Assembly (NCBI GenBank): GCA_964640155.1
Contig: CAZXEQ010000003.1
Location: 104,189-136,188 of the forward strand
DNA length: 32,000 nucleotides
Origin: an uncultured bacterium
Lineage (GTDB): Bacteria > Auribacterota > JACPWU01
Direction of reading: 5' to 3'
Position numbers and translations under genes: made by a program
Part shown: piece by piece, positions 1,001 through 20,118 of the stretch
Layout: every line of letters begins with the position of its first letter
How positions within the stretch are numbered: position 1 is the stretch's first letter
Notes under the pieces: model-generated
What the model saw: the letters and a program-made list of their open reading frames with translations, nothing else
Told to the model about the DNA's origin: nothing
Database searches by the model: none

Positions 1001-4000
1001 AAGACTGAAGGGGTGTTTGTAGAAAGAGTTTCTATATCAGACCGATCACGCACAATAACAACTCAAGCTGTCTTACCCGATGGACGTATTGCTTATGGTT
1101 TTGCAGATGGGTGGGTTGAATTGTGGGATCCTAAGAAACCCCATTTGGGATTTAAAAGAATAGGACAATATGCTGTAGGAAGAGGCAATCAGGAAATCAC
1201 GGTTTTAAAAGTTGTGGCAGGAAAATTATTAATTGCTGGGAAGGCTGGATATCTTGAAGTGTGGGATCCGGAACAGCCTACTCAAAAACCTTGGTGTTTG
1301 GGAGATTACAAAGAAGAAATTTATGCGATTGAAGAATTAGATGGGGAAATTTTTGTCGGTGGGAAAGGAGCAGTTATTCGATATTGGACTTTGGAAGATT
1401 TAAAAAATAAAAAAGAGATTCAGGGAGAAGTTTTGGGACAGTATGGGCATGAATTTAGCAGTGTTTTTAGTTTTCTTGTTGTGGATGGAAAACTTGTAAT
1501 AGGGGGAGGTGTTCAACTAGAATTTTGGGATTCACAAGAGCCAGAGAAAAAAATTCAAAGTACAGCAATGCATGAAGGAGCCACACACGCTTTGCAATAT
1601 TTAGATGGGAAAATTGTTGCTCTTGATTCAAGTGGGCATATCCGTTATTGGGATAAATCTTCTTTGTATGCTCAAGAATCCCAAGTCCCTTATCCTATTG
1701 GAGAGTATGGTATGAAAGCTGAAGCAATGAAGGTTTTGGATGGGAAGTTGTATGTGGGAGGATATGGAGGAGAACTTAAAGTATGGGATCCAGAGAGCTC
1801 ACGAAAAGGTCTGCACAATATATTTCAGTATCAAAATGATGAAGGAGCAAAACCCGGAACAATGAATTATATTACAACTATTTCATATCTTGAAATAGTA
1901 AACGGTCGTTTGTCTATCATAGGCTCCTCTAACGGTGTTGGTGGGGTTACTCTCTTAGAATTTTCTCCAACCGGTGTGGTGAATAGCAAGAATACTTTTA
2001 GATCTCTAAAATCAGGAGTTGAACATCCCCTGTCAAAAATTTCTTCTGAAGAAGTGACCGTTTTAACCCCAGCTCCTCAAGTGGATCATGAAAATCTATC
2101 TAAAGAGGTTGAATCTCGCCAAATGAAAATGAGAACGCTGCAGGAGCAGGATTTTAAAGGAAGAACAGATTTGGCATTGGAGTTGGCCTATATTGCGAGA
2201 GAACATGGGGATAAGGCAGAGTGGATTGAGATAGAAACAAAGAAGGAAGATTTGAAAGTAGGAGAAATATTTGAAGCAGAAGTTTGTGCGGGGATAGAAA
2301 GACAGTTTTTACATCCATATCCAGGTAAAATACGTGCTCAGGCGCTTCTTCCTAATGGAGAGTTGGTGGTAGGAGGGGAAAGAGGAGAGTTGTGGATTTA
2401 CAACACTGGAGACCTTAATGCAATCCCAAGAAAGTTTAAATTTCGTTATCCGGCAGAAATTCATGCCATTAAAGTTTTAAAAGATGGACGTGTGATTGTG
2501 GCCGGGAAAGCTGTTGATTATATAAGCAAAGTATGGATTTATGATCCTATTCATACCGACGCAAGACCTATTCAAATTAAACATTATTCTGGAGGAGATG
2601 TGTATGCTCTTGAGCTTTTGAATAATAGTTTGGTTGCCATTCAAGAGAAAAATGAAATTAAAATTTATGATCCAGACAAACCAGATCAGGAGGCTAAAAA
2701 GTTTTCTTCTCCTTGTGCAGGTGGTGCTGAGATCATGAGATTGTTGAAAAATGGTTTATTAGCTGTTGGCAAGGGAGCGTCAGGAGGGGATGTTGAAATT
2801 TTTGATCCTGCTCATCTGGAAAAACCTTCTAAAGAGTTTGTTTATCGCTATGGAGATGTTGCTGCCATTGAATCTCTCAATGAGAAAGAATTAGCTGTTG
2901 CAGGATTGACAACGGGAGGATTTGGAAAAATAAAAATTTATAATCTTGAAAATTACGACGCAGAACCCCAAGAATTTTCTTTTCCTTATCCTGGACAAGT
3001 TTATGCTCTTCAAGCATGGGGGGATGATTATTTGGTTGCAGCAGGAAGTTCTGGTGTTGTTCTTCTCTATGATAGATGGGATTTAAAGAAGGATCCTGTT
3101 GAATTAGGACATCTAGATATAGAAGAAAAACAAAAACTCAAAAGAATCATTTTTTCATTACAAGTTTCACCTGAAGGACAACTATCGGTGGCAGGTGGCA
3201 ATGGAATCGTAAAAATTTTTGATTTAAAAAATAGAGGTATTGTCAGAGATCAAAACTCTTTTGTCTCTATAGCTACCGGAAAAGTTCATCCTCTAGACAG
3301 TGTTGTGTCGGACGCTGTAACTGCTCGCTCTATTTTGCCTTCCATTAATCCTGAAAATCTTGCTGATGAAATAAAACGTCGAGAAAATGAGATACGCACT
3401 ACAAATGATGAGAGAGAAAAAACAAGATTGGCCAAAGAAATAGAATTTTTGGTTAAAAAATATGGAAAAGAAATGAAATGGTTTGAAATGGAATCAGAGA
3501 AAGAAAAACTGAGAGAGGGTGATATTTTTAAAACGGAAGTAATGAATAAAACATTTCTTGATCCGGACGGTATTGGTTGTGAGGGTGTTGCCTTGCCTAA
3601 TGGTCAAATAGTGATAATAAAGCTTAGAGAATTAAGATTTTATAATCCTAATCACCCTGAAGCGCCTATAAAGACAATAAAAACAGAAAAAGCAATAAAC
3701 AGGATTGAGCTCTCAGCAAATGGGAATCTTGTTCTTTATGAGGCAGGAGACGTTATTGAAATTTATGATCCCATCCAGTACACCCGCTTAAACTTAATAC
3801 AGTTTCCCGGGAGTGCAGATGTTGATGATTTGCAATATTTGCCTGACGAAAGATTAATAGTTCGTGAGAGAAGAGGGGATATTTTAATTTATGATCTTCA
3901 AAATATTGAAAGCGAACCCTATCATTTGAAAAGAGGATATCCATTTTCTTCCGCCACGCAGGTTTTGCCGAATGGGCAGCTTTTGGTTAGAGAGAATAAA

Positions 4001-7000
4001 AAATTAAGGCTATATCAGTTACCTTCTAGAGAGGTGATGAGAGCGCGCGTCGAAAGCATGTTAGCCTGGCACGCATCCAAATGGAAGACACCCATGCCTG
4101 AATGGGATGACTCACTCACAGAATTAGGTAAGGATGATTCTATGATGGCATGTGTTATTTTACCTAATGGCAATATTGCTATAGGTACATATGAAGGACA
4201 GATCAAAATTTATGATATTCAAAATTTAAAAAAAGGGGATGTGCCTCCTCCACCTACGAGATTTGCTTATTTCAAAGGCAAAATTATAGAAATGGCCTTG
4301 TTGTCTCCTACACGTTTAGTTGTCGCTAGAGAAAATGGTTTATTGGAAATGTATGATTTAACTCGACCTGACTTACCTCCTAAACCTCTAGGGAATTTTG
4401 GCGGTGAAATACTTTCCCTTTCCGTGTTGAAGGATGGGAGGTTGATGGTTACGGGCGAGGGAGGAAAAGTCGAATTTCTGGAATTCAGTATAACCGGGAT
4501 TCTATTGCGAGATAAGACGTTTCGTTCTTTTGCAACAGGGCAGACTTATGATGTGAGCAATATCGTTTCTGACGCTGTGATGACGTTGCATCCAATACCC
4601 TACATAGACCCTGAAAATTGGAAAGAAGAAGTAGAAAAACGCATTCATGAAATGAAATTGGCTCAAAGTGAACATGAAAAGAAAAGATGGGGTTTGGAAG
4701 CAGTGCATATTGTTAGAGAACATGCAGACAAAATGGAATGCGATAAGAAAGATCTTAAGCCCGGTGATGTATTTGAGATGAGAGCCATGATTCAGCAAAA
4801 AAATGATTCAAAAGACACGGTTTTTACCCAAGCGATTCTTCCAGATGGGCGTGTGGTATATGGTGATGAAGGAGAATTAAAAATTTATCATCCAGATGCT
4901 CCTCATGAATTATTCCAATCTATTCCGTTCTCTCAATTTGACTCTGTCCAGGATTTGCAAGTTGTTGAAAACAAACTTTATATGATAGATCGAAATGCGA
5001 ATCCCTATCTTTATCTTTATGATTTTTCTGAATCAGGAAAGGGAGTTCAAAGAGTAAAGCACGAGTTTAATAATGGAAAAATCTATGGTGTTTGGTCTCT
5101 GAATGGAAAGATTTATGTGGCGAATGATAAAGGAGAAATTTATGTTTGTGATTTCTCCGAAGGTCCACTTAAATTTAAACCTTTGGAAAATGGCAAAACA
5201 GAGATGTTTGTAGACTCTATGCAATGGTTGAATGGAAAGCTTTATGTGAGTGGACATACGGAAGATGGATCAATGGTAGCTATCAGTATGGGTTTAACTA
5301 CAACATACAGACATGTGAAAGTATATGATCCTGATCATCCTCAACAAGGATTTCGAGATATTAAAGTTATGGGCAAGAATGATGTTTCTTTTTCAAATTT
5401 ACAAGTTTTAGATGGGAAAATTTATATGGGAGTCTCTGGCAAAGGATTGACAGTCTTTGATCCTCAAAAACCAGATGATGGATTTTTGCTTTTGAATGGA
5501 TGCGAATATCGTCATTCAATCAGACATGTACGCGTTATGAATGGAAAACTTGTAATGGCTGGAGAAAAAGAAATTTTGATTTATGATCATAAAAATCCTT
5601 CTCTGGGACTTCAAAAGTTAGCTGAAATTACAGAGTTTATTTTTAGCTTAGAGGTATATGACAATACAAGAATTGCTGTAGGGTTAGGTAATCAACAGAT
5701 TCTCTTAAAAATAGATGCGATTGGTATGGTGATGGAGGGTGAAAAGTTTGTAGATGTGGAAAGTGGTAGAGAGTATGCATTACAGGATGTTTGTGGGGAA
5801 CGTGTAGCGGTACATTTGTCTATACCTGCGATTACATCTGAAAACTTTGTGGATGAGGTGAAGAGACGGCAAGCGCAGATGGTGACAGAATCGGATGAAA
5901 GAGAAAGAAGGTGTTTGGCGGAGGAGTTGAAGAGGGTTTTAGGGAAAGATTTTAGTGAAAAGGGATGGACTCCAGAAGAGAAAGTAAAAGAGGCTTTGAT
6001 GCCAGGAGATGTGTTTAAAGTAGATGTAATTGCGAAGACATTGATTGAAGGAGATGGAGTAGATATTTGGACGGGTATTGTTTTGAAAGATGGTCGAGTG
6101 GCTGTCGCAAAAGGAGATAAAGTATTTATTCATAACCCACAAAAACCGGAGGCTCACCCCATAGAGATTCCAGCTACTCATTTGGTCAGGGCGATAGAAG
6201 AGTTACCTGATGGTCGGCTTGTTGTTTCAGGGGTGTCAGAAATGGTGACAATACACAATACTCTCACACCAAATCGCTATGTTCAGTTTACGCATCTTTA
6301 TGGGGATGAAGTTAATGCCATTAAACTTTTACCCAATGATCTTTTGGCTGTAGCTGGAAGAAGTGGAAAAATTCTTATCTATGATCTCAAAGATTTAACA
6401 AGAAGGCCTTACGAATTAAAGAAAGATGATAATCGAACCATTTTCGTCTTAGAGGTTTTACCCAATGGAACTCTTTTTGTCGCGGACTACATGGGAAGGG
6501 CAAGTATTTATTCAATTCCAGGCCAAGAAGTTTTTAATCAGCAGTCGATGGAGTCTCAAACTACACCAGATTATTTAATTGCTGAGTTAGAAACTTATGG
6601 GATACCAAAATTGGGAGGTTTAGAGTGCACATCCATTCACTCTTGCGCGCTTTTACCAGATGGAACTCTAGCACTGGGAGGAGATGGTGGGGAGATTTTT
6701 ATTTATGATGTTTCAAAAGTTAGAAAAGGTGAGAGGCCGCCGAAACCTAAAAGACTGATAAATTTTGGTGGCAATATTAGAGCGATGACTTATTTATCTC
6801 CACATCATCTTGTTGTGGCTGGAGCAAGTGGTGCAGTAAAGATTTATAATTTAAACCATCCAGAACTTCCTCCTCGAGAAATATTTAGTTATGGAAATTG
6901 GGTTAAGACATTGAAAGTATTGGAAGATGGTAGGTTATTGATAGCAGGTTTTGGAGGGGAAGCCGTGATTTTAGAATTAAACGTGTTGGGACTAATGACA

Positions 7001-10000
7001 GGGGATAAAACTTTCGAATCTCTTCAGACAGGGGAGAGTTATCGATTGGATGATGTTCAAAGTTCAAAGGTTCAGAGATTAGAGGTGAAGGAAACAGTTT
7101 CTAGAAATGTGGTGTCATCGCGAGTCCCCCGACGTAGTATCGGGGGACGTGGCGATCTCGTAGATGGGATTGCTTCGTCAGCCGATAAATCGGCTTCACT
7201 CGCAATGACGGAGTCAGAGCAAAAAACTAAAATCACAGAAGCTTTAGATGCTCCATTCACTCCAAAATATCCTAGCCTACCTTTTTATTTTGCTTTAGGT
7301 GAGGATGGAATTGTTTATCTCAATTATCAGGGACGATGGTATCCGACGAAGCATAAAGCAGTCACCAGTCGCCAGTCTTCAGTCGTCAGTGAAAACAACA
7401 GTGAGACGATTTATTATGAAACTGTCATTCCGGCGAAGGCCGGAATCCAAACCTCTCTGGATCCCGGATCGCGCTCGCATTTAGCTCGCTTGTCCGGGAT
7501 GACCAAACAAAAAGTTCGACTTCTGCAGCTTTCTGACATTGTGCATCCATTGGAAAGAATGGATTCCCGATTGAAACCTTCGGGAATGACAGGAGGAGAA
7601 CGGACACTTATCCCTCGGGATTTTTTGATGGAGACAGAAGTGTTGAAGGGTGTAGAGGCTTCTGTTTTGAAGGCGTTTCAAAGAGGTTGGGCTGTTGATT
7701 TAGAAGGTGGACCGGGTGGCGGAAAAACAAGTATGGCCCGTGAAGTGGCTCTTCTTCTGGGACTTCCTTCCTATGTTTTTCAAATGCATGGTCAAAGGAC
7801 ATTATCAGATTGGATTGGGGGATATAGCGAAGATGGCAAAGGTCATTTAACTAGGAACAATCTTCCCAATGATGAAGGTCATTTCCGACAAGAATTGCTA
7901 GAGGCCATTACGCATGGGGGTGTTTATGTTGTAGATGAGGGCGCCGTTGGAAAAAAAGGACGTGAACTTTTAAATTGGTTGGCTCCATTGTTAAGAGCTT
8001 TAAGGACTCGTGGTGATGGACGTAAAATTTTTCTTCATGAATTTCCAACTTTGGCGAAAGAATTAGGTATAGAAACCCCCCTGGAAATATCTTTAGATTT
8101 TCATTTGGTGATCACGAATAATAAAGCGGGTGAAACTCAAGCCCGTGAAGTGATGAAAAGTGAGGTAGCAACAGAAGTAGTATATGTTGATGTAGATGAA
8201 GATGATGGGCCTGAAACGTTGCAGAGGTTATTCCTTCATTTTACGCAAGATTTAGGGGTTGATGCAACCATAAAAGAAAATCTTGCAAAGCATTTAAGTG
8301 AATTTCATTGGGCTTTGAAAGAGAGAATTGGAAAAGATTTGGGGGTCGATGATAAAGATAGACATTATCTTTCTAAAAGAGAAATTCGTAGGGCTGCACG
8401 TCTGATGCGTTGGGCTCATTCTCAGAACTCGGAAGCGGATCCCGTTTTTGATTTTTATGTATCTTTAAGAATTGCCTATGAATCCATGTTTACTCATGCT
8501 TGGGAAAAAGATGAGGTTGAGAGAATTTTAAGAGAAAAAATTGAGAATATAGAGTCGGGCAGTTATGAGCGTGTGACCAAGAAATTTGACACTTTAAAGG
8601 AAAAAGCATTTGGTAAAACCGTCAGATCTAAAATTGTGACAGGCCCGGAATTAGAAGAGGCTTTTTTAACAAAAATGAGTATGGAGGCCGGAGAACCGGT
8701 GCTTCTTTTGGGGGAATTAGGGGCACGTGTTTCAGATGTTGTTCGTCGAGTCTCTGAAGAATTAAATGCAGAAGTAAATATTATTGATGCAGATCCTCAA
8801 CAATCTCGTCAGGAAATTCTGGGAGGGCCTTTCCCAGATGTTCGACAAGGAAGTAGTAAAAATATTGCACATATCTTGGGTAAGTTGGTTCAGCATTTGA
8901 TGACCAAAGAACAGATGGAAGCTTTAGAAAGTGCAGGAGAAAAACTACACCCTCAAGTTTTGTGGATTCGAAATATTGATTTATGGAGTGAAGATTTAAG
9001 AACCGCCTTAAATGGATTTTTGGAGGATGGATATATTCGTTTAGAAAAAGGTGACGGTACGATAGAGACTTATTATCGTCCCTCTCATGTTCACATCATT
9101 GCAGACATGGGTTCAGAGTCCATACAAGATTTTTCAAGCGCCTTTTTTAATCGCTGGGTGAAAATAGGAATTTCTAGAGAGAATCCTCCTGAAGACTGGA
9201 TTTATTCCAAGCCAGAGGTTTTGGGTATGCTGAGCAAGAAAGCAGAAAAACAGGCGGAACAGTTGATTGTTGCCGTTAGGGATGCAAAAGTTCTTTTGCC
9301 GATGGAGGGAGGTTTTTATCGTTTTAATCCAGAGCTTAATTTGGAAAATTTTCCTCAAAGTCTCAAAGGCGAAAAAATTTATACTCAATTCTTGAGATCT
9401 TTAAAAACTAAAAATCAACTTTCTGATTTTGAAAAAGTATTGGTGAATCGTTTTGGCATGAGCCTTCGAGAAGCGGAGGACTTGACCCGATTGTATGTTT
9501 CTTTGATGGATATTGATTCAGCTCAAGGGGCGCAGCGCTGGAAGGGAGAAGCCCATTATGGTTTTGGCCCCACTTTGTTCTATGCTTTAGCAGAATCGAT
9601 TCAAATGGCCAAACGTGAAGATTCTAAAATTTTAGCTTTAGAAAGACAATTAAGAGAACAGTATGACGTAAATTTTGAACATGTTTTGATTCATGGACCT
9701 CCTCCGGGTTCTTCAACAGATGCAATCGATCTTTATAAAGCTTATATTTCTGCTTTAAAGAAAATGATGGCAGAAGAAATTTTAAGAATTATTGGTACAA
9801 GATTAAAACCTTTGGATCGTCCTGATTTTGAACAACTTCTTCATTCAACATTAGATTTGGAAGTTCCTCCTGGGCTCAATACTTCTGTTCATACCACGAC
9901 GGGTACACTGGAAGGTCAGGTTACTCGTATCGGCAATGTTGCTCTTCAGGCTAGAGAAGGGGCTAAAGGCCCTCTAGAAGTTTCTAAAGATCATCGTGTT

Positions 10001-13000
10001 AGGTACGGTGGCCAATCTGTAGAAGAGGGCTTGGCTGTTCTGGCTCGTGCTTCACAGCTTGGAAAGGCTGTAGCTTTGGTGGGTGAACCGGGTGTCGTAA
10101 AAACTACTTTAACGGGACATTTTGCAGAAATTACAGGGAGGAAATATTATAAGTTTCAATCTCATAAAAAAAGTCGTGTGGAAAATCTTACATTTGAAGT
10201 AGAGCAGGAAGCAGATGGGACTTTCCATAAGAAAATTCAAGAGCTTTATCAATATCTTCGCGAAGGAAATGTAGTCATTGATATTGATGAAGCGAATGCT
10301 CAACCCGAAATTCTTTGGCTTTTAGGTCCTGTCTTAAGAGGTGAAGAATGGATTTATCCCATTTTTCCAGGAGAGCCTCCTTTTAAAATAGGCAGAGGAG
10401 TACAACTTGTATTTACCTATAATCCAGCTCATTTTTCAGGTCGAAGTGAAATGGATAAGCGCATTTTAGATTTAATGATTGTGGCATGGCTTGAACCTCC
10501 TAAAAAAGAAAATAAACCAGCTATTACTGAAACTTTCTGGGGTGTTTGGGCTGAAAAAGTTGCAAAAGTTGAAGAAGATAAGTTTCCTCAAAGATTTGAA
10601 GTTCATGTACCACCGGTTGAAATGCCGGCTGATTTAGCAAAAGATGTTGGTTATGATCATGCAAGGATTCATGAAACGATTACTTCTTTTGATCAAACTA
10701 CGAATCAAACAGATAAAGTAGACATTTTCTTGAAAGTTTTACCTGAATACTTTTTAGCTTTGGCTAATCGGGATGGAGCTAGATATGATCAAGACATGCT
10801 CCGTATGGCTGCTATTTTAGATGGATTTTTAGCAAGGTCAGGTCAGGAAAGCAGAATCGTTAGAGATCTTGAAGTTCTACAAAAAGAATATCATCGCTCT
10901 TCTCCCGACAAAACTCGATTACGCTACGGCATATTAGAATTTAGAAAACATTTTTTAAAATTTGATCGGCATTTGATTATTTTTATGTTCACTCCCAAAA
11001 ATCGTACAGTTCCATTTTTGCGCATTTATCCCAATAAGATTTTAGATCGAATCACCCTTTCACATAAAGAAGGATGGGAAACCAGTGGAGAAGCTCTGGT
11101 GATTGAAGGACATGGATTGGAGAAAGGAAATAAGATGGGCTATTTTGATGGAGAATATGCTCTCGTCAATACCCCTAAGACAGGAGGCGTAAAGCATATT
11201 CAAACAGAATGGACGGCCCACCATGAATTAGGGCATCGAAATGATCAAGCCCCGCATAAAACAATTCCTAAAAATATTGAAATGAACTCTATGCTCAGTC
11301 CACTTATGCATTCTAGAGAAAAGAAAAATTATATTGAGGAAGAATTGGCTGGTTGGGTGTCGAGTGGACAGAACAATTCTTATTATACTCAAGCATCAAA
11401 AGGAATATTGAATGGGCTTGTACAAAGATGGTGGGAGTTGAATAAGACAACAGGGAGACCTCCTCAAATTGATGATGTATTTGCAGATGCTGATATTAAA
11501 GCAGTATTAGATTTGGTTCTCACGATGGATGAAGCGACATTAGAAAGTTTAGCTCTTTATCTTTACGATCATCCTAGATATCTAGAAAGCGGCCAAAAAG
11601 GGGCTTATAAACAACGCGTGTCTACGGGAACTGCAGAGCAGGGGGGTGGAGAAGAAGAAATTATGGAAGGAGTGGATGGAGAAATTGAAGTCGATGTTGA
11701 AATGGTGGAAGGAGGAGCCACTCCGGAAGTAAATGTATCAAACCCAGAAGGTTCGGATACGGTTCAAGAAACGAGTGGTGAAAATCTAACTCCTGAAATG
11801 GAAGCTCGTCGCCAAAAAGATTTAGAAAAACAACATCGCAAAACTGAAGACCTGAAGAAAAAGTTAGAAGAAGAAACAAAAGCCTCTGGAACGGAATACG
11901 ATCAAATGATCATGGGAGGACAAGGTCAGGCTGAAAGCATTTTTGACAGGATATTACGCGCGTTTCGATCTAAACGTAAAACAATTACCATTCGTTTAAG
12001 ATCCGGTTTAGAAGTAGATCCTATTGCTCATATGCTCAGACTCTATAATCGATTTATCAAACGTGAAGAAGTTTTTGACATGCAAACACATGCTGTTTCT
12101 GTTTTGATGGATTTTAGCGGAAGTTTGGCTCCTTTTAAGAAACAGATAGCCTATGCGGTGCGGGCGATTGGAGATAATTTTTGGAAATTGAAATGGGCAG
12201 CTTCTCGCCATTTTTATTTTGATTTATCGTTTTATACAGGAGCGGATCCCGTTACTATGATGGAAATGGGCAGGCTTTATTCAGAATCAGAATGGAAAGA
12301 TAATTGTGTCAAAATGGGAAGACAAATCGGAGATGGAGACAATAATTTACTCAATGCTCTGAGCAAAAAATTGAAGGATTTCGTAGGGTCAGATGTAAAA
12401 GCGGATGTACGCCGGGCAAAGCTTAAAACTTTGATTTTGTTTACGGACGGTCAAGATACTGCAATTATCGGTGGTGATAAACCCATACCTTCAAGAGAAT
12501 TTCAACAGGAGTTAAATCGGTATCGCGCTTTAGGAATAGAAATTTTTGCGATCGGATTTGGAGCAGGGGCAAAGCCTGTTGAAGCTTTTCATGGAAAAGG
12601 ACAACATTTTATCAAGATCGGTGCCCAGCGTCCTTATGATGTACCGGAAGTCATTGCAAAAATTATGGAAGCAAGATCGCGTGGATTAGGAATGATTCCT
12701 GATGGAGATGTCACTCATTTTTTTGGAATTGATGAGAAGGGTGCTCCTCAACTTACGCCAGAAGAAACACAAGCATCACCACAGTCTTTTTCTTCGTCTT
12801 CGCCAAGCTCTACTGGGGGAGGCTCATTTGCACGCATGCTTCCTCCTGAAGCCAGTGTTGCGCAAATGGTTGTAAGTGGTTCAAAAGTCATAGAATCTTT
12901 GCCAGGTTCAGAACGCTCAGGAGCCACTCGTGTTATCGTTGATGCCATAGCTGAAAAAATGAGAGCTGCTTCGGATTATGCTCATAGTGTTGTAAGGGGA

Positions 13001-13063
13001 CTGCCTTCGACTCAATCTAGAAAAGTATCCTCAAGAGAAGTTGTTTTAGATCAGGCTGCTTAG
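2..13063 (+). CDS. Giant multidomain protein, 5'-partial (>4,350 aa visible): >=6 tandem WD40-like 7-bladed beta-propeller modules, 3 AAA_5 (MoxR/midasin-type) ATPase modules plus one vestigial P-loop, acidic linker, C-terminal VWA/MIDAS domain
   Basis: One frame is open from nt 2 to the TAG at 13061-13063. The track start (GTG at 26) lies inside a propeller blade: nt 2-25 translate LHPLRALG, continuing into VLSDGRIVAGG, which matches the blade consensus. The ORF therefore continues upstream of the window. Motifs read from the translation: Walker A GGPGGGKT (7706-7729), Walker B VYVVDE (7922-7939), Walker A GEPGVVKT (10082-10105), Walker B VVIDIDEA (10271-10294), MIDAS DFSGS (10110+2000 region, exactly 12110-12124). 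Confidence 0.9.
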   Translation, partial: LHPLRALGVLSDGRIVAGGTWGKMTVYNPSDPKDEGESLSGYDGTIHDIQVLPDDSIVVVGAGGYVKKFELKAGSTPQSLGRYYQYDGRQIIYKTRRLSNGHYVVVGEGGAIKICDPNYPDSEPILVGHYGKDVHALEILPDDTIVVGGDGGEILAFEPKENAKPHKFGNYGNDINMIRYSPADGKILIGGRNGVLAFIEKEMVGVMCSEKDFVSPMGKKYSLDQVSTDQAKVFIPIPHVTDENFSSAVTRLQAEIKTAEGAEKKRLAEVLMHVLRKGKPAQRKDGSPIDTLGDDKHSVPLSFPKAFIGNPLEDKKWIQSQQKKEELGVGDVFKTEGVFVERVSISDRSRTITTQAVLPDGRIAYGFADGWVELWDPKKPHLGFKRIGQYAVGRGNQEITVLKVVAGKLLIAGKAGYLEVWDPEQPTQKPWCLGDYKEEIYAIEELDGEIFVGGKGAVIRYWTLEDLKNKKEIQGEVLGQYGHEFSSVFSFLVVDGKLVIGGGVQLEFWDSQEPEKKIQSTAMHEGATHALQYLDGKIVALDSSGHIRYWDKSSLYAQESQVPYPIGEYGMKAEAMKVLDGKLYVGGYGGELKVWDPESSRKGLHNIFQYQNDEGAKPGTMNYITTISYLEIVNGRLSIIGSSNGVGGVTLLEFSPTGVVNSKNTFRSLKSGVEHPLSKISSEEVTVLTPAPQVDHENLSKEVESRQMKMRTLQEQDFKGRTDLALELAYIAREHGDKAEWIEIETKKEDLKVGEIFEAEVCAGIERQFLHPYPGKIRAQALLPNGELVVGGERGELWIYNTGDLNAIPRKFKFRYPAEIHAIKVLKDGRVIVAGKAVDYISKVWIYDPIHTDARPIQIKHYSGGDVYALELLNNSLVAIQEKNEIKIYDPDKPDQEAKKFSSPCAGGAEIMRLLKNGLLAVGKGASGGDVEIFDPAHLEKPSKEFVYRYGDVAAIESLNEKELAVAGLTTGGFGKIKIYNLENYDAEPQEFSFPYPGQVYALQAWGDDYLVAAGSSGVVLLYDRWDLKKDPVELGHLDIEEKQKLKRIIFSLQVSPEGQLSVAGGNGIVKIFDLKNRGIVRDQNSFVSIATGKVHPLDSVVSDAVTARSILPSINPENLADEIKRRENEIRTTNDEREKTRLAKEIEFLVKKYGKEMKWFEMESEKEKLREGDIFKTEVMNKTFLDPDGIGCEGVALPNGQIVIIKLRELRFYNPNHPEAPIKTIKTEKAINRIELSANGNLVLYEAGDVIEIYDPIQYTRLNLIQFPGSADVDDLQYLPDERLIVRERRGDILIYDLQNIESEPYHLKRGYPFSSATQVLPNGQLLVRENKKLRLYQLPSREVMRARVESMLAWHASKWKTPMPEWDDSLTELGKDDSMMACVILPNGNIAIGTYEGQIKIYDIQNLKKGDVPPPPTRFAYFKGKIIEMALLSPTRLVVARENGLLEMYDLTRPDLPPKPLGNFGGEILSLSVLKDGRLMVTGEGGKVEFLEFSITGILLRDKTFRSFATGQTYDVSNIVSDAVMTLHPIPYIDPENWKEEVEKRIHEMKLAQSEHEKKRWGLEAVHIVREHADKMECDKKDLKPGDVFEMRAMIQQKNDSKDTVFTQAILPDGRVVYGDEGELKIYHPDAPHELFQSIPFSQFDSVQDLQVVENKLYMIDRNANPYLYLYDFSESGKGVQRVKHEFNNGKIYGVWSLNGKIYVANDKGEIYVCDFSEGPLKFKPLENGKTEMFVDSMQWLNGKLYVSGHTEDGSMVAISMGLTTTYRHVKVYDPDHPQQGFRDIKVMGKNDVSFSNLQVLDGKIYMGVSGKGLTVFDPQKPDDGFLLLNGCEYRHSIRHVRVMNGKLVMAGEKEILIYDHKNPSLGLQKLAEITEFIFSLEVYDNTRIAVGLGNQQILLKIDAIGMVMEGEKFVDVESGREYALQDVCGERVAVHLSIPAITSENFVDEVKRRQAQMVTESDERERRCLAEELKRVLGKDFSEKGWTPEEKVKEALMPGDVFKVDVIAKTLIEGDGVDIWTGIVLKDGRVAVAKGDKVFIHNPQKPEAHPIEIPATHLVRAIEELPDGRLVVSGVSEMVTIHNTLTPNRYVQFTHLYGDEVNAIKLLPNDLLAVAGRSGKILIYDLKDLTRRPYELKKDDNRTIFVLEVLPNGTLFVADYMGRASIYSIPGQEVFNQQSMESQTTPDYLIAELETYGIPKLGGLECTSIHSCALLPDGTLALGGDGGEIFIYDVSKVRKGERPPKPKRLINFGGNIRAMTYLSPHHLVVAGASGAVKIYNLNHPELPPREIFSYGNWVKTLKVLEDGRLLIAGFGGEAVILELNVLGLMTGDKTFESLQTGESYRLDDVQSSKVQRLEVKETVSRNVVSSRVPRRSIGGRGDLVDGIASSADKSASLAMTESEQKTKITEALDAPFTPKYPSLPFYFALGEDGIVYLNYQGRWYPTKHKAVTSRQSSVVSENNSETIYYETVIPAKAGIQTSLDPGSRSHLARLSGMTKQKVRLLQLSDIVHPLERMDSRLKPSGMTGGERTLIPRDFLMETEVLKGVEASVLKAFQRGWAVDLEGGPGGGKTSMAREVALLLGLPSYVFQMHGQRTLSDWIGGYSEDGKGHLTRNNLPNDEGHFRQELLEAITHGGVYVVDEGAVGKKGRELLNWLAPLLRALRTRGDGRKIFLHEFPTLAKELGIETPLEISLDFHLVITNNKAGETQAREVMKSEVATEVVYVDVDEDDGPETLQRLFLHFTQDLGVDATIKENLAKHLSEFHWALKERIGKDLGVDDKDRHYLSKREIRRAARLMRWAHSQNSEADPVFDFYVSLRIAYESMFTHAWEKDEVERILREKIENIESGSYERVTKKFDTLKEKAFGKTVRSKIVTGPELEEAFLTKMSMEAGEPVLLLGELGARVSDVVRRVSEELNAEVNIIDADPQQSRQEILGGPFPDVRQGSSKNIAHILGKLVQHLMTKEQMEALESAGEKLHPQVLWIRNIDLWSEDLRTALNGFLEDGYIRLEKGDGTIETYYRPSHVHIIADMGSESIQDFSSAFFNRWVKIGISRENPPEDWIYSKPEVLGMLSKKAEKQAEQLIVAVRDAKVLLPMEGGFYRFNPELNLENFPQSLKGEKIYTQFLRSLKTKNQLSDFEKVLVNRFGMSLREAEDLTRLYVSLMDIDSAQGAQRWKGEAHYGFGPTLFYALAESIQMAKREDSKILALERQLREQYDVNFEHVLIHGPPPGSSTDAIDLYKAYISALKKMMAEEILRIIGTRLKPLDRPDFEQLLHSTLDLEVPPGLNTSVHTTTGTLEGQVTRIGNVALQAREGAKGPLEVSKDHRVRYGGQSVEEGLAVLARASQLGKAVALVGEPGVVKTTLTGHFAEITGRKYYKFQSHKKSRVENLTFEVEQEADGTFHKKIQELYQYLREGNVVIDIDEANAQPEILWLLGPVLRGEEWIYPIFPGEPPFKIGRGVQLVFTYNPAHFSGRSEMDKRILDLMIVAWLEPPKKENKPAITETFWGVWAEKVAKVEEDKFPQRFEVHVPPVEMPADLAKDVGYDHARIHETITSFDQTTNQTDKVDIFLKVLPEYFLALANRDGARYDQDMLRMAAILDGFLARSGQESRIVRDLEVLQKEYHRSSPDKTRLRYGILEFRKHFLKFDRHLIIFMFTPKNRTVPFLRIYPNKILDRITLSHKEGWETSGEALVIEGHGLEKGNKMGYFDGEYALVNTPKTGGVKHIQTEWTAHHELGHRNDQAPHKTIPKNIEMNSMLSPLMHSREKKNYIEEELAGWVSSGQNNSYYTQASKGILNGLVQRWWELNKTTGRPPQIDDVFADADIKAVLDLVLTMDEATLESLALYLYDHPRYLESGQKGAYKQRVSTGTAEQGGGEEEIMEGVDGEIEVDVEMVEGGATPEVNVSNPEGSDTVQETSGENLTPEMEARRQKDLEKQHRKTEDLKKKLEEETKASGTEYDQMIMGGQGQAESIFDRILRAFRSKRKTITIRLRSGLEVDPIAHMLRLYNRFIKREEVFDMQTHAVSVLMDFSGSLAPFKKQIAYAVRAIGDNFWKLKWAASRHFYFDLSFYTGADPVTMMEMGRLYSESEWKDNCVKMGRQIGDGDNNLLNALSKKLKDFVGSDVKADVRRAKLKTLILFTDGQDTAIIGGDKPIPSREFQQELNRYRALGIEIFAIGFGAGAKPVEAFHGKGQHFIKIGAQRPYDVPEVIAKIMEARSRGLGMIPDGDVTHFFGIDEKGAPQLTPEETQASPQSFSSSSPSSTGGGSFARMLPPEASVAQMVVSGSKVIESLPGSERSGATRVIVDAIAEKMRAASDYAHSVVRGLPSTQSRKVSSREVVLDQAA
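859..931. repeat. Two 8-bp-stem palindromic hairpin units lying in frame inside linker 1 of the giant ORF
   Basis: ATCCCCGA(859-866)/TCGGGGAT(876-883) and ATTCCCGA(907-914)/TCGGGAAT(924-931), both perfect inverted repeats read directly. They encode ...SPIDTLGDDKHSVPLSFPKAFIGNP..., a ~30-aa stretch with no counterpart in linkers 2-5. Confidence 0.7.
1001..2272 (+). repeat. Super-repeat module 2: 7-bladed WD40-like propeller plus linker 2
   Basis: Seven blades, each ending in W/Y-D-like dipeptides (VELWDP, LEVWDP, IRYWT, LEFWDS, IRYWDK, LKVWDP, TLLEF). Linker: GVVNSKNTFRSLKSG...DHENLSKEVESRQ...LKVGEIF (GEIF at 2261-2272). Confidence 0.75.
2273..3529 (+). repeat. Super-repeat module 3: 7-bladed propeller plus linker 3
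   Basis: Seven blades (LLPNGELVVGGERGELWIYNT ... SPEGQLSVAGGNGIVKIFDL). Linker: GIVRDQNSFVSIATG...NPENLADEIKRRE...LREGDIF (GDIF at 3518-3529). Confidence 0.75.
3530..4774 (+). repeat. Super-repeat module 4: 7-bladed propeller with a ~40-aa insert between blades 4 and 5, plus linker 4
   Basis: Blades LPNGQIVII..FYNP ... LKDGRLMVTGEGGKVEFLEF. Insert: PSREVMRARVESMLAWHASKWKTPMPEWDDSLTELGKDDSMM. Linker: GILLRDKTFRSFATG...DPENWKEEVEKRI...LKPGDVF (GDVF at 4763-4774). Confidence 0.75.
4775..6016 (+). repeat. Super-repeat module 5: 7-bladed propeller plus linker 5
   Basis: Blades with an [DN]GK[IL][YV] signature as in module 2 (LNGKIYVANDKGEIYVCDF, LDGKIYMGVSGKGLTVFDP, MNGKLVMAGEKEILIYDH). Linker: GMVMEGEKFVDVESG...TSENFVDEVKRRQ...LMPGDVF (GDVF at 6005-6016). 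Confidence 0.75.
6017..7110 (+). repeat. Super-repeat module 6: 7-bladed propeller with a blade 4/5 insert as in module 4, and a truncated linker 6
   Basis: Blades LKDGRVAVAKGDKVFIHNP ... LEDGRLLIAGFGGEAVILEL. Its last three blades align with module 4 (KGERPPKPKRLINFGGNIRAMTYLSPHHLVVAG vs KGDVPPPPTRFAYFKGKIIEMALLSPTRLVVAR). Linker 6 starts normally (GLMTGDKTFESLQTG). The helical ...EN...E..R...GD[VI]F half is missing and the hairpin-rich spacer stands in its place. Confidence 0.7.
7125..7587. repeat. Cluster of five palindromic hairpin units (same stem family) lying in frame between the propeller array and AAA-1
   Basis: Perfect stems: TCCCCCGA(7125-7132)/TCGGGGGA(7140-7147); ATTGC..AGCCGAT/ATCGGCT..GCAAT (7169-7206); ATTCCGGC(7427-7434)/GCCGGAAT(7439-7446); ATCCCGGA(7461-7468)/TCCGGGAT(7493-7500); ATTCCCGA(7563-7570)/TCGGGAAT(7580-7587). 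The region is visibly more GC-rich than its surroundings and is open in several frames on both strands (track ORFs 7072-7260-, 7299-7484+, 7425-7607-, 7481-7681-). Confidence 0.7.
7640..8420 (+). other. AAA_5-type ATPase module 1 (intact Walker A/B) of the giant protein
   Basis: GGPGGGKT (7706-7729), hhhhDE VYVVDEG (7922-7939), sensor-1-like VITNN, and a downstream lid helix LSKREIRRAARL. These match the MoxR/CbbQ/midasin AAA_5 pattern. Confidence 0.75.
8695..9175 (+). other. AAA-like module 2 with degenerate nucleotide-binding motifs
   Basis: PVLLLGELGARVS replaces Walker A (no GK[ST]). VLWIRNIDLWSEDL replaces Walker B. A C-terminal SSAFFNRWVKI resembles the AAA_5 '..A...RF..i' end. Probably a non-hydrolysing module. 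Confidence 0.5.
9692..9718 (+). other. Vestigial P-loop-like motif HGPPPGSST (possible remnant of another AAA module)
   Basis: VLIHGPPPGSSTD resembles hhhhGPPGxGKT but lacks the Lys. No Walker B is recognisable downstream. Confidence 0.25.
10028..10503 (+). other. AAA_5-type ATPase module 3 (intact Walker A/B)
   Basis: AVALVGEPGVVKTTL (Walker A 10082-10105), VVIDIDEAN (Walker B 10271-10294), sensor-1-like LVFTYNP, and terminal DKRILDLMIVAWLEPP. Confidence 0.75.
11641..11885 (+). other. Acidic D/E-rich segment followed by a K/E-rich helix, immediately upstream of the VWA domain
   Basis: GGGEEEIMEGVDGEIEVDVEMVEGGATPEVNVSNPEGSDTVQETSGENLTPEMEARRQKDLEKQHRKTEDLKKKLEEETK, read directly from the translation. 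Confidence 0.8.
12085..12680 (+). other. C-terminal von Willebrand factor A (VWA) domain with a MIDAS motif
   Basis: VSVLMDFSGSL (DxSxS at 12110-12124), LILFTDGQDT (~12431-12460) and IFAIGFGAG match the canonical VWA strand/MIDAS pattern. Confidence 0.8.
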
Positions 13064-17094: not shown

Positions 17095-20000
17095 ATGAAT
17101 ACTCAGATGAGTTGTTTGTATAAAAAAATTGTATGCCTTTTGGTGTTTCCTCTTGTTTTAACTCAAGCGATGGGCTCTCCTTCTCTGGAGGAAAATTCTC
17201 AAGAAAATTCAACGAGCACAGACTTAAGTGAAATATATTTCCCTTCGAAAATTGGAGTTGTGACTGATTCCTATCAAAGTACAAAAAATCAAACAACTAT
17301 TTTTTATATCAAGGATATTCATTGCAATCTAGAAGGTCAGCTTAATATTTCTAAAATGATTGAAGAGCTTTCAAAAAAACAGAGAATTCAACTTGTCTTG
17401 GTTGAGGGTGCTCAAGGAAAAGTTCAGACCGATCTCTTGGGCTGTTTCCCAGATTCAAAGATTCGGAAAAAGGTGAGTAGAAAATTTTTGGCGAAAGGTT
17501 TTATCAGTGGGTGTGAATACCTTGCAATTTCAAAATTTAATAAAATTCCTATTCACATCTATGGCATTGAAGATGAGCAACTTTATCTTAAGAATTATTA
17601 TTTTTTTAAAGAAGTTTATGAAAAAGCAAGTGATACTAATCAATTTATGAACGTTTCGAAGATATTCATTCAAAGGTTAAAGAGAAAAGTTTTTAATAAA
17701 AAGCTTTTGAAAGTCGATCACGATTGGAAGGAGTATCAAGAAGGGAAATTAGCTTTGGTGAAATTTGTTAAGACTCTTTCTCGAGAAGAATGGAATAACC
17801 GTGCGTCTCCTAATCTTGTAAAACTTTTGAAGATTTTATCTGTTATAAATCAGAAGAATCCTTCTCTCTTGGAAAAAGAACATAGATCTTTTATTCAAAG
17901 ATTAAGTCAAATTCTATCTGCCGATCAGACACAAGTTCTTATCAAGTTAATTCTAAAAAAGAGGTTGAGTAAAATTTCAGATGAAGAATATTTTTCAAGA
18001 TTAAAAAATATTCTTCCATCAAATCACATCACAAGACTTCGTAATCAATTTTCTGTTCTTTTTGGGGTTTTTGATTTGCATCGCTTCTTGAAAGAAAAAA
18101 GTGAGAAGTTGGCTTTAGAGTTAGAGGATGCTGTAGATTTATTGTTTGAGAGGCTCGCAAAAACAGAAGAAGAAAAAAATCTACTTAATCTTTCTTTAAA
18201 ATTAGAAACTTTAGAAAAAGCTTTAACATTAACTCTTTCTAGAAAAGAATTTGAGAAAGAAGGTCAAAATTTTGATCTCGATCAGTTTATTCAACATTTA
18301 GAAAGTCTCTATAAAAAGCAAAGCGATAATTTTTCTGTAAATAAAATTGATTTTTTATGGATGAAAAAAATGAAAGGACTTGTTGAATCTGGGAAGTCTT
18401 TTTATCGACTTGCTTTAAAAAGAGAAGATCAAATGGTTCAAAATGCGCTTCAGAAAATAAAAGAGGAAGGTGTACAAAAGGCTATTTTGATTGCTGGAGG
18501 CTTTCATTCTCAGGGGTTGATGGAAAAATTGAAAAAACGAGGTATTTCTTGTATTGCTATAATGCCAATACTAAAAAAGAGAGATGAGGGGCATTTGTAC
18601 TTAGAACGAATGCTGTCTCAAAACATCAACTTAAAGTTTATTCAAAATTTTTCTATTTCTTCTCTTTCAGTTCTAGATCTTCTTTCAGATACAGCTTCTA
18701 ATGATGATGATCGAACAGAATTTTTAAGAAGTTTTTTTCATTATATGGTTACATTTTATGGAGCAGATTCCTTAGATGATGAAGAAACAGTTATTCATCG
18801 ATGGCGGCAACAGGTTATTGCCCTTCATTCAGAATTATTATTAGACTTTAATCAAGTGGTGGAATCTTTATTGTTTTTAGCAAAGACCATTGCTTTGGGT
18901 CAAAGAGAAATTGTGCATGTTTTAAAAGATTCGTTAGGGAATCAAAAGAAAATGTTGCAAATGAAAGTTATTCTTTCGTTTTTGTATCGAGAGCAACTGT
19001 CTGTCTATGATGAGATAAAGTTAAAGATCGATCATCCTAGCCTTATAGCTTATATGACACAATTAGAGGAAAGTCATTACATCACAAATCGATTTGGAGT
19101 TTGGGAGGTTTCAGATGATACAAGAAATGATAGAGATTCTACAGATGTAAGTGCAACAGCTGATCTTTTAGGTGAAGACAATATTCTCGCAGAGAGTGAT
19201 TCAGGTATGGGAGTGGCGTATCGCATTAACGAAGGTCGTGCTATTTCTGAGCGGGAAAGATTAGAAGAAGTTTTTAGTATTCTTTCTAATTTTTGTAAGG
19301 CAAAACCTCGAATTCCATGGATTCAAATACAAACGGATCATCGAGGGAAATATCTTTATTTTTGTGGTTCTCGAATTCTTAGTATAACGCCAAAAACTTT
19401 TTTGAGGGATGCAGCGGTGTCGTTTTTTATCAGAGATGCCGATCATGTGGAAATAAGAAAAGGAGGCGTAAGCTATATTTTAGGAACTACGGGGACGATG
19501 GATATTTTAGAGGATGATATTTCTACCGTTTCTCATGCAAAGACTTTATTGAGAAGACAAGTACAGCGCTTAAGATTAATTCATGAAGATAAAATACAAA
19601 TTAGAAATTATTGGGAAGCGTTTTGCCGTTATTTTCAGGATAAAGCTTCGGAAGGGAGTCCATATCGACATGCAATTGTAGCTTTTTTTATAGATGAGAT
19701 TTTGAAAAATTTAAGTCGACAGGCTCCGCCTGAAATTCTAGGTTATGCCTTAGTGGTTTTAGATCAGCTGAGAGAAAAAATTTTAGAACTCGTAACTGAG
19801 AAAGAAGAGGAGGGGAATTTTGAAAATCAAGCTTCTTTTCGTTATGTCATTCGTTTTTGTGGATATTCCCTTTTAGGTTATACGCAATATCGTTTTTTTA
19901 TTCCTATGGAGTCTTTAGACCAGACCATTGCTCCAATCACTCAAGTAACTGCGACCTTATTAGAATCTCTTTTGAATGAACCACAAATTGCAAGAACTTC

Positions 20001-20118
20001 GTCTGTAGCAGAAATGGCAGTAGCCGAGTTAGGTAGAGGTAGGGCAAACTTTTTTCAATCTGCTCAAAGAGGGTTGATGGAAAGAAGAAGTAGTTCTATT
20101 CTTGAACAAGCAGCTTAA
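17095..20118 (+). CDS. Large secreted/exported protein of unknown function (1007 aa); the N-terminal half has Tiki/TraB/GumN/ChaN-like GxxH-type motifs
   Basis: N-terminal signal-peptide-like MNTQMSCLYKKIVCLLVFPLVLTQAMG. TIFYIKDIHCN...QLVLVEGAQG (~17300-17430) and KAILIAGGFHSQGLMEKLKKRGISCIAI (~18481-18560) resemble the paired '..H' / 'vvvGa.H..G...L...G' motifs of that superfamily. The C-terminal ~500 aa has no recognisable motif except a tail shared with the giant ORF. Confidence 0.7.
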   Translation: MNTQMSCLYKKIVCLLVFPLVLTQAMGSPSLEENSQENSTSTDLSEIYFPSKIGVVTDSYQSTKNQTTIFYIKDIHCNLEGQLNISKMIEELSKKQRIQLVLVEGAQGKVQTDLLGCFPDSKIRKKVSRKFLAKGFISGCEYLAISKFNKIPIHIYGIEDEQLYLKNYYFFKEVYEKASDTNQFMNVSKIFIQRLKRKVFNKKLLKVDHDWKEYQEGKLALVKFVKTLSREEWNNRASPNLVKLLKILSVINQKNPSLLEKEHRSFIQRLSQILSADQTQVLIKLILKKRLSKISDEEYFSRLKNILPSNHITRLRNQFSVLFGVFDLHRFLKEKSEKLALELEDAVDLLFERLAKTEEEKNLLNLSLKLETLEKALTLTLSRKEFEKEGQNFDLDQFIQHLESLYKKQSDNFSVNKIDFLWMKKMKGLVESGKSFYRLALKREDQMVQNALQKIKEEGVQKAILIAGGFHSQGLMEKLKKRGISCIAIMPILKKRDEGHLYLERMLSQNINLKFIQNFSISSLSVLDLLSDTASNDDDRTEFLRSFFHYMVTFYGADSLDDEETVIHRWRQQVIALHSELLLDFNQVVESLLFLAKTIALGQREIVHVLKDSLGNQKKMLQMKVILSFLYREQLSVYDEIKLKIDHPSLIAYMTQLEESHYITNRFGVWEVSDDTRNDRDSTDVSATADLLGEDNILAESDSGMGVAYRINEGRAISERERLEEVFSILSNFCKAKPRIPWIQIQTDHRGKYLYFCGSRILSITPKTFLRDAAVSFFIRDADHVEIRKGGVSYILGTTGTMDILEDDISTVSHAKTLLRRQVQRLRLIHEDKIQIRNYWEAFCRYFQDKASEGSPYRHAIVAFFIDEILKNLSRQAPPEILGYALVVLDQLREKILELVTEKEEEGNFENQASFRYVIRFCGYSLLGYTQYRFFIPMESLDQTIAPITQVTATLLESLLNEPQIARTSSVAEMAVAELGRGRANFFQSAQRGLMERRSSSILEQAA

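Follow-up and report, generated by a model that had tools for sequence, protein, structure and literature searches.

The giant genes found in Omnitrophota and its neighbouring phyla remain puzzling. In the giant proteins of Omnitrophota, according to West-Roberts et al., the N-termini "generally lack identifiable domains"; C39 and S8 peptidases are mentioned, and a shared tail is not (10.1101/2023.11.21.568195). A 2026 preprint describes signal peptides, transmembrane helices and nearby secretion or pilus genes, and reports neither a common N-terminal head nor a common C-terminal tail (10.64898/2026.06.07.730766); we found no paper that describes either. Here we examine a window of 32,000 nucleotides from an uncultured bacterium of the phylum Auribacterota, in which two large proteins, a giant and a protein of 1007 residues, end in Leu-Asp-Gln-Ala-Ala and Leu-Glu-Gln-Ala-Ala. 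This ending, L[D/E]QAA, is the genome's form of the C-terminal end tag of a large, uncatalogued protein family. Its members consist of a Sec-type signal peptide, a TIKI/ChaN/Ere-like head of ~445 residues, an exchangeable and often giant cargo, and the tail.

Which described systems come closest? The C-terminal domain of the type IX secretion system (T9SS; Por_Secre_tail, Bacteroidota) is similar in that dozens of large proteins per genome combine a Sec signal with a shared C-terminal module. However, that domain is a folded beta-sandwich of ~80 residues that is removed by PorU and is tied to no N-terminal domain, whereas here 5-30 conserved residues stand at a free carboxylate and are coupled to a 445-residue head. 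Giant RTX adhesins with an N-terminal retention module (LapA, SiiE, MpIBP) also have conserved end modules flanking variable repeats or cargo, and an uncleaved signal at the extreme C-terminus, but they are type I substrates without Sec signals and need adjacent genes for an ABC transporter and a membrane-fusion protein (MFP); the present family has Sec-type N-termini and no RTX repeats. The likeness to MARTX toxins is one of architecture only. Conserved ends bracket exchangeable enzyme domains, and one MARTX effector, RRSP, has the TIKI fold (PMC6254334). MARTX ends are long glycine-rich repeats, export is of type I and release is by a cysteine protease domain, whereas the TIKI-like domain here is a fixed N-terminal head and not cargo, and nothing indicates toxicity. 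Finally, PDZ-binding motifs and the peroxisomal PTS1 signal (-SKL-COOH) are C-terminal codes of three to five residues in which the carboxylate is read and conservative swaps are tolerated, although these belong to eukaryotic or general interaction contexts, and the code described here has a small residue at -2 and an aliphatic residue or Ala at -1.

The two window proteins

The window covers G000:C3:104189-136188, where G000 is the source genome (2.44 Mb in 14 contigs, 97% complete). The giant gene enters it from the left, so that window positions 2..13063 (+) hold its C-terminal 4,353 codons in the list of open reading frames (ORFs); the full ORF, G000:C3:96507-117251, encodes 6,914 residues. 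Its C-terminal translation (window 11000-13063), ...HSVVRGLPSTQSRKVSSREVVLDQAA, finishes in ...SSREVVLDQAA. The last 70 codons (12851..13063, +) encode a poorly conserved linker with the tag at its end, and the terminal pentapeptide Leu-Asp-Gln-Ala-Ala-COOH occupies 13046..13060 (+), followed by the stop codon at 13061-13063. A VWA domain (12101..12568, +; PF00092 at G000:C3:116289-116756, E=1.2e-5) lies ~165 residues before the C-terminus. The 1007-residue family member is encoded at 17095..20118 (+) and comprises signal peptide, head, ~500 residues of cargo and tag. Its C-terminal translation, ...SSVAEMAVAELGRGRANFFQSAQRGLMERRSSSILEQAA, ends in ...RRSSSILEQAA, with Leu-Glu-Gln-Ala-Ala-COOH at 20101..20115 (+) and the stop codon at 20116-20118. 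Both translations end just as an earlier note on this DNA had described.

That note had called the two proteins otherwise unrelated. They are in fact paralogues, since both carry the same type of N-terminal signal peptide and the same ~445-residue head. In the 1007-residue protein the Sec-type signal peptide, MNTQMSCLYKKIVCLLVFPLVLTQAMG|S with the cleavage site placed by eye (17095..17175, +), has a basic n-region, a hydrophobic core of ~12 residues and A-M-G before the Ser. Its head spans residues 63-503 (17281..18603, +) and matches a hidden Markov model (HMM) of the genome's heads at E=2.4e-135. The signal peptide and head of the giant lie ~7.4 kb upstream of the window, where the same HMM matches G000:C3:96756-98159 at E=1.9e-141. 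The ~500-residue cargo of the shorter protein has no recognisable domains, and a whole-protein Pfam scan returned no family. In an AlphaFold2 model of the full 1007-residue chain, the predicted local distance difference test score (pLDDT) is 70-94 in the head and below 50 for residues 509-1007.

The two pentapeptides are written with different synonymous codons and different stops (tta gat cag gct gct tag in the giant, ctt gaa caa gca gct taa in the 1007-residue protein), so the likeness is at the level of protein and is not that of a DNA repeat. Of the three colinear matches that had been proposed between the tails, S..RGL and the terminal motif do align, whereas SVA[QE]M falls outside the best alignment and needs a gap of 35 residues. 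That alignment covers ~55 residues almost without gaps (ESL / A.AE / S..RGL / terminal motif), and upstream of the terminal seven residues it scores above shuffled sequence at p=0.002.

Head and tag across the genome

Is the ending peculiar to these two proteins? Within the window no other ORF ends this way, as had been noted, but the statement fails for the whole genome, where there are ~28 carriers. A stop-to-stop scan of all six frames, with size counts made on non-overlapping ORFs, finds an exact QAA ending on four ORFs (1007, 2451, 6589 and 6914 residues), all on contig C3. These four lie on the same strand, yet their heads are not one clade in the tree. Nearly all of the largest ORFs have a related ending, among them IEAAA, VEAMA, IGTAA, VEISA, FDVAA, FEAAA and VEMMA. 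Counted as [A/M/S]-Ala after hydrophobic-[D/E-like]-x, the ending is present on 14 of the 16 ORFs of at least 3000 residues, on 7 of 15 between 1500 and 3000, on 6 of 77 between 800 and 1500, and on ~3 of the 1,935 below 800. A proteome scan, which the earlier note had proposed, finds the ending enriched in large ORFs, far above background.

The tag is tightly coupled to the head. The head HMM (A1), built from an alignment of 22 heads of this genome that are 23-32% identical to the first sequence, finds 27 complete ORFs with the head at residues ~60-550, and a search of the whole genome adds one further head ORF, cut by a contig end. When the tag is written as [ILVFMAWYC]-[DEQNSGAM]-x-[AMST]-A, it occurs on 26 of the 27 head-bearing ORFs and on 7 of 2,016 others (Fisher p=5e-52). 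The sole untagged ORF of the 27 is a head-only protein of 600 residues; head-only proteins of ~520-600 residues have no tag. Across the 26 tails, position -5 is hydrophobic in 23 (I7 V6 F6 L4), -4 is acidic in 18 (E12 D6), -3 varies and may be Q, E, R or K, -2 is small or Met (A16 M5 S4 T1), and -1 is Ala in all 26. When the tails are right-aligned, little else is conserved: basic residues are scattered through them, and a hydrophobic-Pro-Pro is frequent some ~20-30 residues before the C-terminus. The genome's version of the tag is thus reduced to hydrophobic-[D/E]-x-[A/M/S/T]-Ala-COOH, and it is retained among paralogues whose heads are 23-32% identical and whose sequence just upstream of it is mostly unconserved. 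The earlier suggestion that the terminal peptide is a common recognition signal is supported and can be generalised: the peptide marks a family, and it is kept by members with heads only ~25-30% identical.

The tag can also occur apart from the head. Two of the seven tagged ORFs without a head are clear cases, of 4,280 and 2,870 residues (G000:C3:343245-356087, +, ending in ...FEAAA, and G000:C5:147619-156231, -, ending in ...VETAA). Both bear a signal peptide of their own and immediately follow a head+tail gene, from which 69-100 nucleotides separate them; a third of the seven is a fragment at a contig start. The carrier on C5 and the head+tail gene before it have a homologous C-terminal region in common. 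Two further very large ORFs follow head+tail genes and have neither head nor tag. One is the largest ORF of the genome (17,802 residues; G000:C7:15772-69180, +), downstream of a 2,588-residue member, and the other has 7,595 residues (G000:C8:69549-92336, +) and is downstream of a 3,669-residue member. In both, a segment near the N-terminus is hydrophobic, and these proteins may act as partners of family members.

These N- and C-termini bear on one form of the earlier proposal that the tail serves a dedicated secretion system. A dedicated system is possible in general. In its type I form, the tail would be a signal for an ABC transporter, an MFP and TolC, as in the giant RTX adhesins. Giant size, the extreme C-terminal position and an acidic residue followed by small hydrophobic ones all recall such signals, notably those of the PrtG/HasA class, and TolC-family genes are plentiful in the genome. 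However, the N-termini of all 26 full members have, by inspection, a basic n-region, a hydrophobic core of 10-15 residues and a small-residue c-region, which is the pattern of a Sec-type signal peptide and is absent from type I substrates. No RTX-type or GG nonapeptide repeats occur in the last 110 residues of any member. Searching the genome for type I genes turned up no ABC-MFP operon, as none of the four ABC_membrane exporters adjoins any of the six HlyD-family genes, and this 97% complete genome contains no C39 peptidase domain. Type I secretion is therefore very improbable.

The head domain and the wider family

What is the head? Its conserved motifs run ...hhIQDxHCxxEAQ...VEGAxG...FPDxxxR...TGAE...G.E..LY..N..., followed by ~250 helical residues and then ...FY..A.KRD......LITGGFHT.G.......ISY...TP. 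In all 22 aligned heads H15, Q21, E43, E80, G96, Y103, F375, Y376, R382, G407-H410 and P430 are invariant. The AlphaFold2 model made from these 22 paralogues (pLDDT 87.8) has a five-stranded alpha/beta core, with strands at 7-13, 39-42, 93-97, 401-407 and 424-428 alternating with helices, and the ~250-residue helical insert splits this core. A parallel beta-sheet core flanked by helices is the core of the TIKI superfamily, which includes the structures 5T09, 3B55 and 2G5G and has a catalytic set of two His and two Glu (2His/2Glu); some TIKI-family enzymes are peptidases, and RRSP is an endopeptidase with the TIKI fold and the 2His/2Glu motif (PMC6254334). Residues H15, E43, E80 and H410, which are invariant in the sister genera as well, appear from the sequence to match this set in kind and order.

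Database scores for the fold are low. PF04187 (ChaN, Tiki superfamily) gives weak matches to 4 of the 22 heads (best E=1.7e-5, apparently below Pfam thresholds), and PF01963 matches one head at E=0.02. Foldseek against the PDB returned no significant match; its top 18 include EreC (6xcs, E=0.6), Bcr135 (3b55, E=1.0), HopBA1 (5t09, E=1.1) and ChaN (2g5g, E=1.4), while a PDB profile search with the head gave nothing relevant. In whole-protein scans of the 1007-residue protein and of members from other organisms, no Pfam or NCBIfam model covered head or tail, models of the Por_Secre_tail type included. The head shares with the TIKI/TraB/PrgY/GumN/ChaN/erythromycin-esterase superfamily the parallel beta-sheet core with helices around it and, as far as the sequence shows, His and Glu residues in matching order (D-x-H...E-G...E...G-G-F-H). 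It differs in the long helical insert, in its fusion to the N-terminus of giant proteins and in its pairing with a C-terminal tag. The head is likely, though not proven, to be a hydrolase-like domain of the TIKI/ChaN/erythromycin-esterase type.

The family extends far beyond this genome. Word-indexed homologue searches gave few matches, but the head profile, run against 1.84 billion representative proteins clustered at 50% identity, matched 9,807 clusters at E<=0.001, of which 6,854 reach E<=1e-30, and the head is N-terminal in every case. Named matches come from metagenome-assembled genomes (MAGs) of Omnitrophota and Elusimicrobiota, and their cargo includes glycosyltransferases, nucleoside triphosphate transferases, enolase, and ankyrin, WD40 and TPR modules. 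Among the best 150 matches lengths range from ~510 to ~6,900 residues. The ending is [A/S/T/M/G][L/V/A/M/I] in 111 of the best 149, and the other 38 are mostly short head-only proteins or visibly cut. The last 30 residues of the best matches have the consensus I-I-x-L-L-P-P-I-x-P-V-D-x-x-E-A-x-E-A-Y-[R/K]-A-[A/R]-R-x-[V/A/I]-L-x-S-L-COOH. The tail of the wider family is thus a module of ~30 residues, I-I-x-L-L-P-P-I-x-P-hydrophobic, a helix, and [S/A]-[L/V/A]-COOH.

How do the tails of the source genome relate to this module? We scored them in a fixed register with a position-specific score for a 34-residue module, derived from 100 family tails of other organisms and leaving out the last two residues. 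The score separates the genome's family tails from background (Mann-Whitney p=7e-8): 8 of the 27 score higher than 99% of the background, and neither window tail is one of these eight. Both rank with the most diverged tails, the giant's at -25 and that of the 1007-residue protein at -38, compared with a mean of +26 for tails of other organisms; upstream of its ending the giant's tail bears no likeness to the canonical module. A search of the genome with a canonical tail profile (hmmsearch) found nothing significant, the profile being too short. In this lineage the canonical module has largely decayed to the terminal pentapeptide, which is still under selection.

We compared 41 related genomes of the phylum and found the head family in 17 of them, with 2-36 matches each, and not in the other 24. 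In a same-genus genome the 1007-residue protein has an orthologue, 75-81% identical, that ends in ...RRSSFISDQAA, so that aligning orthologue tails, a check proposed earlier, shows the ending to be kept. ORF ends were located for 103 members in nine related genomes, and 78 of the 90 tails that could be read fit the tag. The last residue differs by lineage: six lineages have almost only Ala, two (G011 and G028) end in [S/A][A/L/I/V/M], and most tails of the sister genera (G002 and G003) have [S/N/A]-Met as their ending. Position -4 is acidic in 26 of 116 tails of the wider set and in 3 of 14 Met-ended tails of the sister genera. One apparent exception to the tag in G002 is due to a frameshift. 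The gene concerned (L040, G002:C24:86607-88107) has a +1 frameshift ~3,300 codons in and continues in another frame, and is either an assembly error or a broken gene. When orthology of sister-genus members was sought through their C-terminal cargo, BLAST gave no matches, which indicates that cargo turnover is quick. Further afield, an Elusimicrobia MAG (GCA_016788905.1, JAEURZ010000001.1) encodes a 2,524-residue member with GT4 cargo that ends in ...LVARQA. Its gene lies between a gene for a 3,502-residue giant with a CofD domain and a tgt-yajC-secD-secF cluster; this adjacency to Sec accessory genes may be coincidental.

The family-wide view leaves little room for the tail as a ligand of a metal-ion-dependent adhesion site (MIDAS). 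In that proposal, the Asp or Glu of the tail completes the metal site of the giant's VWA domain as an autoinhibitor, and the tail of the 1007-residue protein does so in trans. The giant does have a VWA domain near its end, and an acidic -4 is common in the source genome. However, only 1 of ~28 tail-bearing proteins has a VWA domain, all other VWA matches being in non-family genes, and the tail is a trait of the family that long predates the VWA cargo. Position -4 is Leu, Val, Gln or Ser in most wider-family members and in the sister genera. The tail residues also differ in homologues of the giant's VWA end. Those in two other families of the phylum (in G011 and G026) finish in ...LFDSMV and ...IVSQGA, with the alignment stopping ~80-100 residues before the C-terminus, and a same-genus paralogue with this homology ends in ...SIEEAA. 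We consider the chance that the tail is a MIDAS ligand negligible.

The same variation weighs on the proposal that the two terminal Ala form a degron. The tail would then be a degradation or processing site for a PDZ-bearing periplasmic protease, of the S41 (Tsp/Prc/CtpA) or HtrA type, used for trimming or turnover. As in ssrA and other -LAA-COOH tails, which are read by ClpX or, via PDZ, by Tsp/Prc, the last residues are small or aliphatic and stand at the carboxylate, and several tails end in AAA or xAA. The genome has one S41 peptidase with a PDZ domain (G000:C2:211828-213087) and further PDZ proteins, the organism's own transfer-messenger RNA (tmRNA) tag ends in LALAA, and the last two residues are of the non-polar type in 26 of 26 tails. 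Endings such as IEAAA, FEAAA, FNAAA and FAAAA also resemble the non-polar C-terminal tails that Tsp reportedly prefers, as Keiler and Sauer are said to have found in 1996. However, the tag is encoded in the genes of full-length proteins and is not added by tmRNA. Related lineages end in Leu, Val, Ile or Met with a penultimate Ser, which makes Ala-Ala a local variant; the acidic -4 (18 of 26 tails) is not a feature of ssrA-type tails; and the strict tie to one family with an obligatory head is left unexplained. Tracing S41 peptidases by phyletic pattern is uninformative, since they occur in 40 of the 41 genomes, with or without the family. A degron is an improbable account of the tag.

Possible readers of the tag

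If neither a type I exporter, a VWA domain nor a general protease is likely to read the tag, what does? The tag stands at a fixed distance from the carboxylate, has a small or aliphatic ending and almost never occurs without the head, which is why we read it as a recognition peptide coupled to the head. A recurrent partner gene was sought by all-against-all BLAST of 191 neighbours of the 27 family genes, and the commonest neighbouring family stands beside 4 of the 27. The lack of a recurrent neighbour fits a self-contained pair of head and tail and, together with the near-obligate coupling, leads us to propose with modest confidence that the head is the reader. The modelled head would be a plausible one, as its fold is predicted with confidence and appears hydrolase-like, with two His and two Glu. 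We therefore favour, at a probability of roughly 0.38, a reading in which the free C-terminus of the tag is recognised in cooperation with the head. Most probably the tail would, after export, dock into the head of the same chain or of a sister protein, or be trimmed by it, and the far end of a very long chain would in this way be marked or held in place.

The chief alternative is that separate envelope machinery handles the protein once it has passed Sec: a factor in the outer membrane or periplasm would read the tail as a signal for sorting or secretion, so as to move the giant across the outer membrane or anchor it there. The tail would act in the manner of T9SS C-terminal domains, or of the C-terminal tags used for sorting with type II secretion, and the head might be recognised too. 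Such a pathway would suit carriers that all have Sec-type N-termini. A 9,425-residue member (G000:C1:14606-42883, -; tail ...WIGTAA) has three TolC/OEP-type matches in one chain, the clearest hint that some members get as far as the outer membrane; at least a portion of this chain is expected there. Three secretin genes are present in the genome, and type II/IV secretion and pilus genes lie beside Omnitrophota giants (10.64898/2026.06.07.730766). The family is patchy, in 17 of 41 genomes, yet has 2-36 copies where present, as expected for substrates of a dedicated system, and the two headless carriers suggest that the tag can function without a head in cis. On the other hand, no gene recurs beside the 27 family genes, no sorting-domain model of Pfam or NCBIfam matches the tail, and neither S41 nor CPBP proteases track the family. 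Moreover, substrates of known tag systems need no enzyme-like domain of 445 residues, whereas here the head is nearly obligatory. We regard separate envelope machinery as a serious possibility, though a doubtful one.

Several observations weigh against the head as the reader of the tag. First, the scores behind the fold assignment are weak, with Foldseek at E>0.2 and Pfam matching 4 of 22 heads at E=1.7e-5 at best. Second, a full-length AlphaFold2 model of the 1007-residue protein, made with 14 aligned paralogues, gives the tail a pLDDT of ~30. Third, a search for covariation between head and tail found one possible event only: Met-ended tails are accompanied by Leu at head column 63, in the FPDxxxR motif, and by Ala at column 421. 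The same genomes hold Ala-ended members with Arg or Lys at 63, but of 116 members of the wider family 109 have Arg or Lys in this column irrespective of the tail, and a single origin of the Met-type heads is not rejected by the approximately unbiased (AU) test (p=0.26). Leu63 and Ala421 may reflect either a specificity switch or common descent. Fourth, coupling between end modules is equally possible if both serve one external machinery, as in LapA-type adhesins and MARTX toxins. Finally, much of the cargo looks cytoplasmic, including AAA+ ATPases, a GT4 glycosyltransferase, an S-adenosylmethionine (SAM) methyltransferase and aminotransferase ends. Set against the Sec-type N-termini, such cargo makes the assumed exported location uncertain, and this bears on every mechanism considered here.

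A more specific form of docking or trimming by the head is an end-to-end device, in which a TIKI-type head captures or trims the last residues of its own chain or of a neighbouring giant, as a completion check or a clasp. The head would leave the ribosome first, be exported, and only later capture or trim the chain's last residues, so that only fully made and exported chains of 1,000-17,000 residues would be closed, matured or released. We found no bacterial precedent for a head-tail completion check described in the literature, and we offer this device tentatively, as a rather unlikely elaboration.

Other candidates were considered and set aside. The genome's only two genes for CPBP (Rce1-like) intramembrane proteases lie close to the 1007-residue gene, one in the window (22411-23232, +), 2.3 kb downstream, and the other 271 nucleotides past the window end (G000:C3:136459-136737, -); both are within ~12 kb downstream, and the synteny is kept in the same-genus genome (contig C230). 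A CPBP protease is nevertheless not a dedicated reader, as homologues are present in 35 of the 41 genomes, and three of the genomes that have the family lack them. A concerted change of the terminal residue would point to one shared reader, but although the Met-type heads fall into two clades of a quick tree, a single clade is not rejected by the AU test, so that ordinary descent suffices for Met versus Ala endings. A free-standing head as a conserved reader was also rejected, since head-only proteins do not group together: the tree shows 9 changes, which are not clustered.

The genome also contains a second, unrelated class of large proteins (1,361-2,618 residues) with a different conserved C-terminal domain, which ends in ...S.FP...VGF.S.Y..G....DN[LV].[VI].E-COOH. 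Three of their genes are on contig C2 (G000:C2:204301-212157, C2:212197-218271 and C2:421400-425485, -, in reverse-strand coordinates) and two on contig C6 (C6:2069-8290 and C6:8318-14992, +).

What does the family mean for the biology of these organisms? The new elements are the statistics for the whole genome and the findings that the tag is here reduced to a pentapeptide, that its last residue differs by lineage (Ala, Met or Leu/Val) and that headless carriers follow head+tail genes; VWA, type I secretion, CPBP and S41 were also tested, with negative outcomes. About 28 of the largest proteins of the source genome are one family, with ~110,000 codons or about one eighth of the genome by a rough sum of ORF lengths. 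A head together with an end tag of as few as five residues is a searchable signature for thousands of uncharacterised giants, and it unites cargo as diverse as midasin-like motors, TolC trimers and sugar-nucleotide enzymes. For the first biochemistry on these giants, the family also offers two small, expressible handles, namely the head domain and tail peptides. Recognition of the tail by the head would be a new way to handle very long polypeptides, and the reading of the tag by a separate machine would amount to a new sorting pathway in bacteria.

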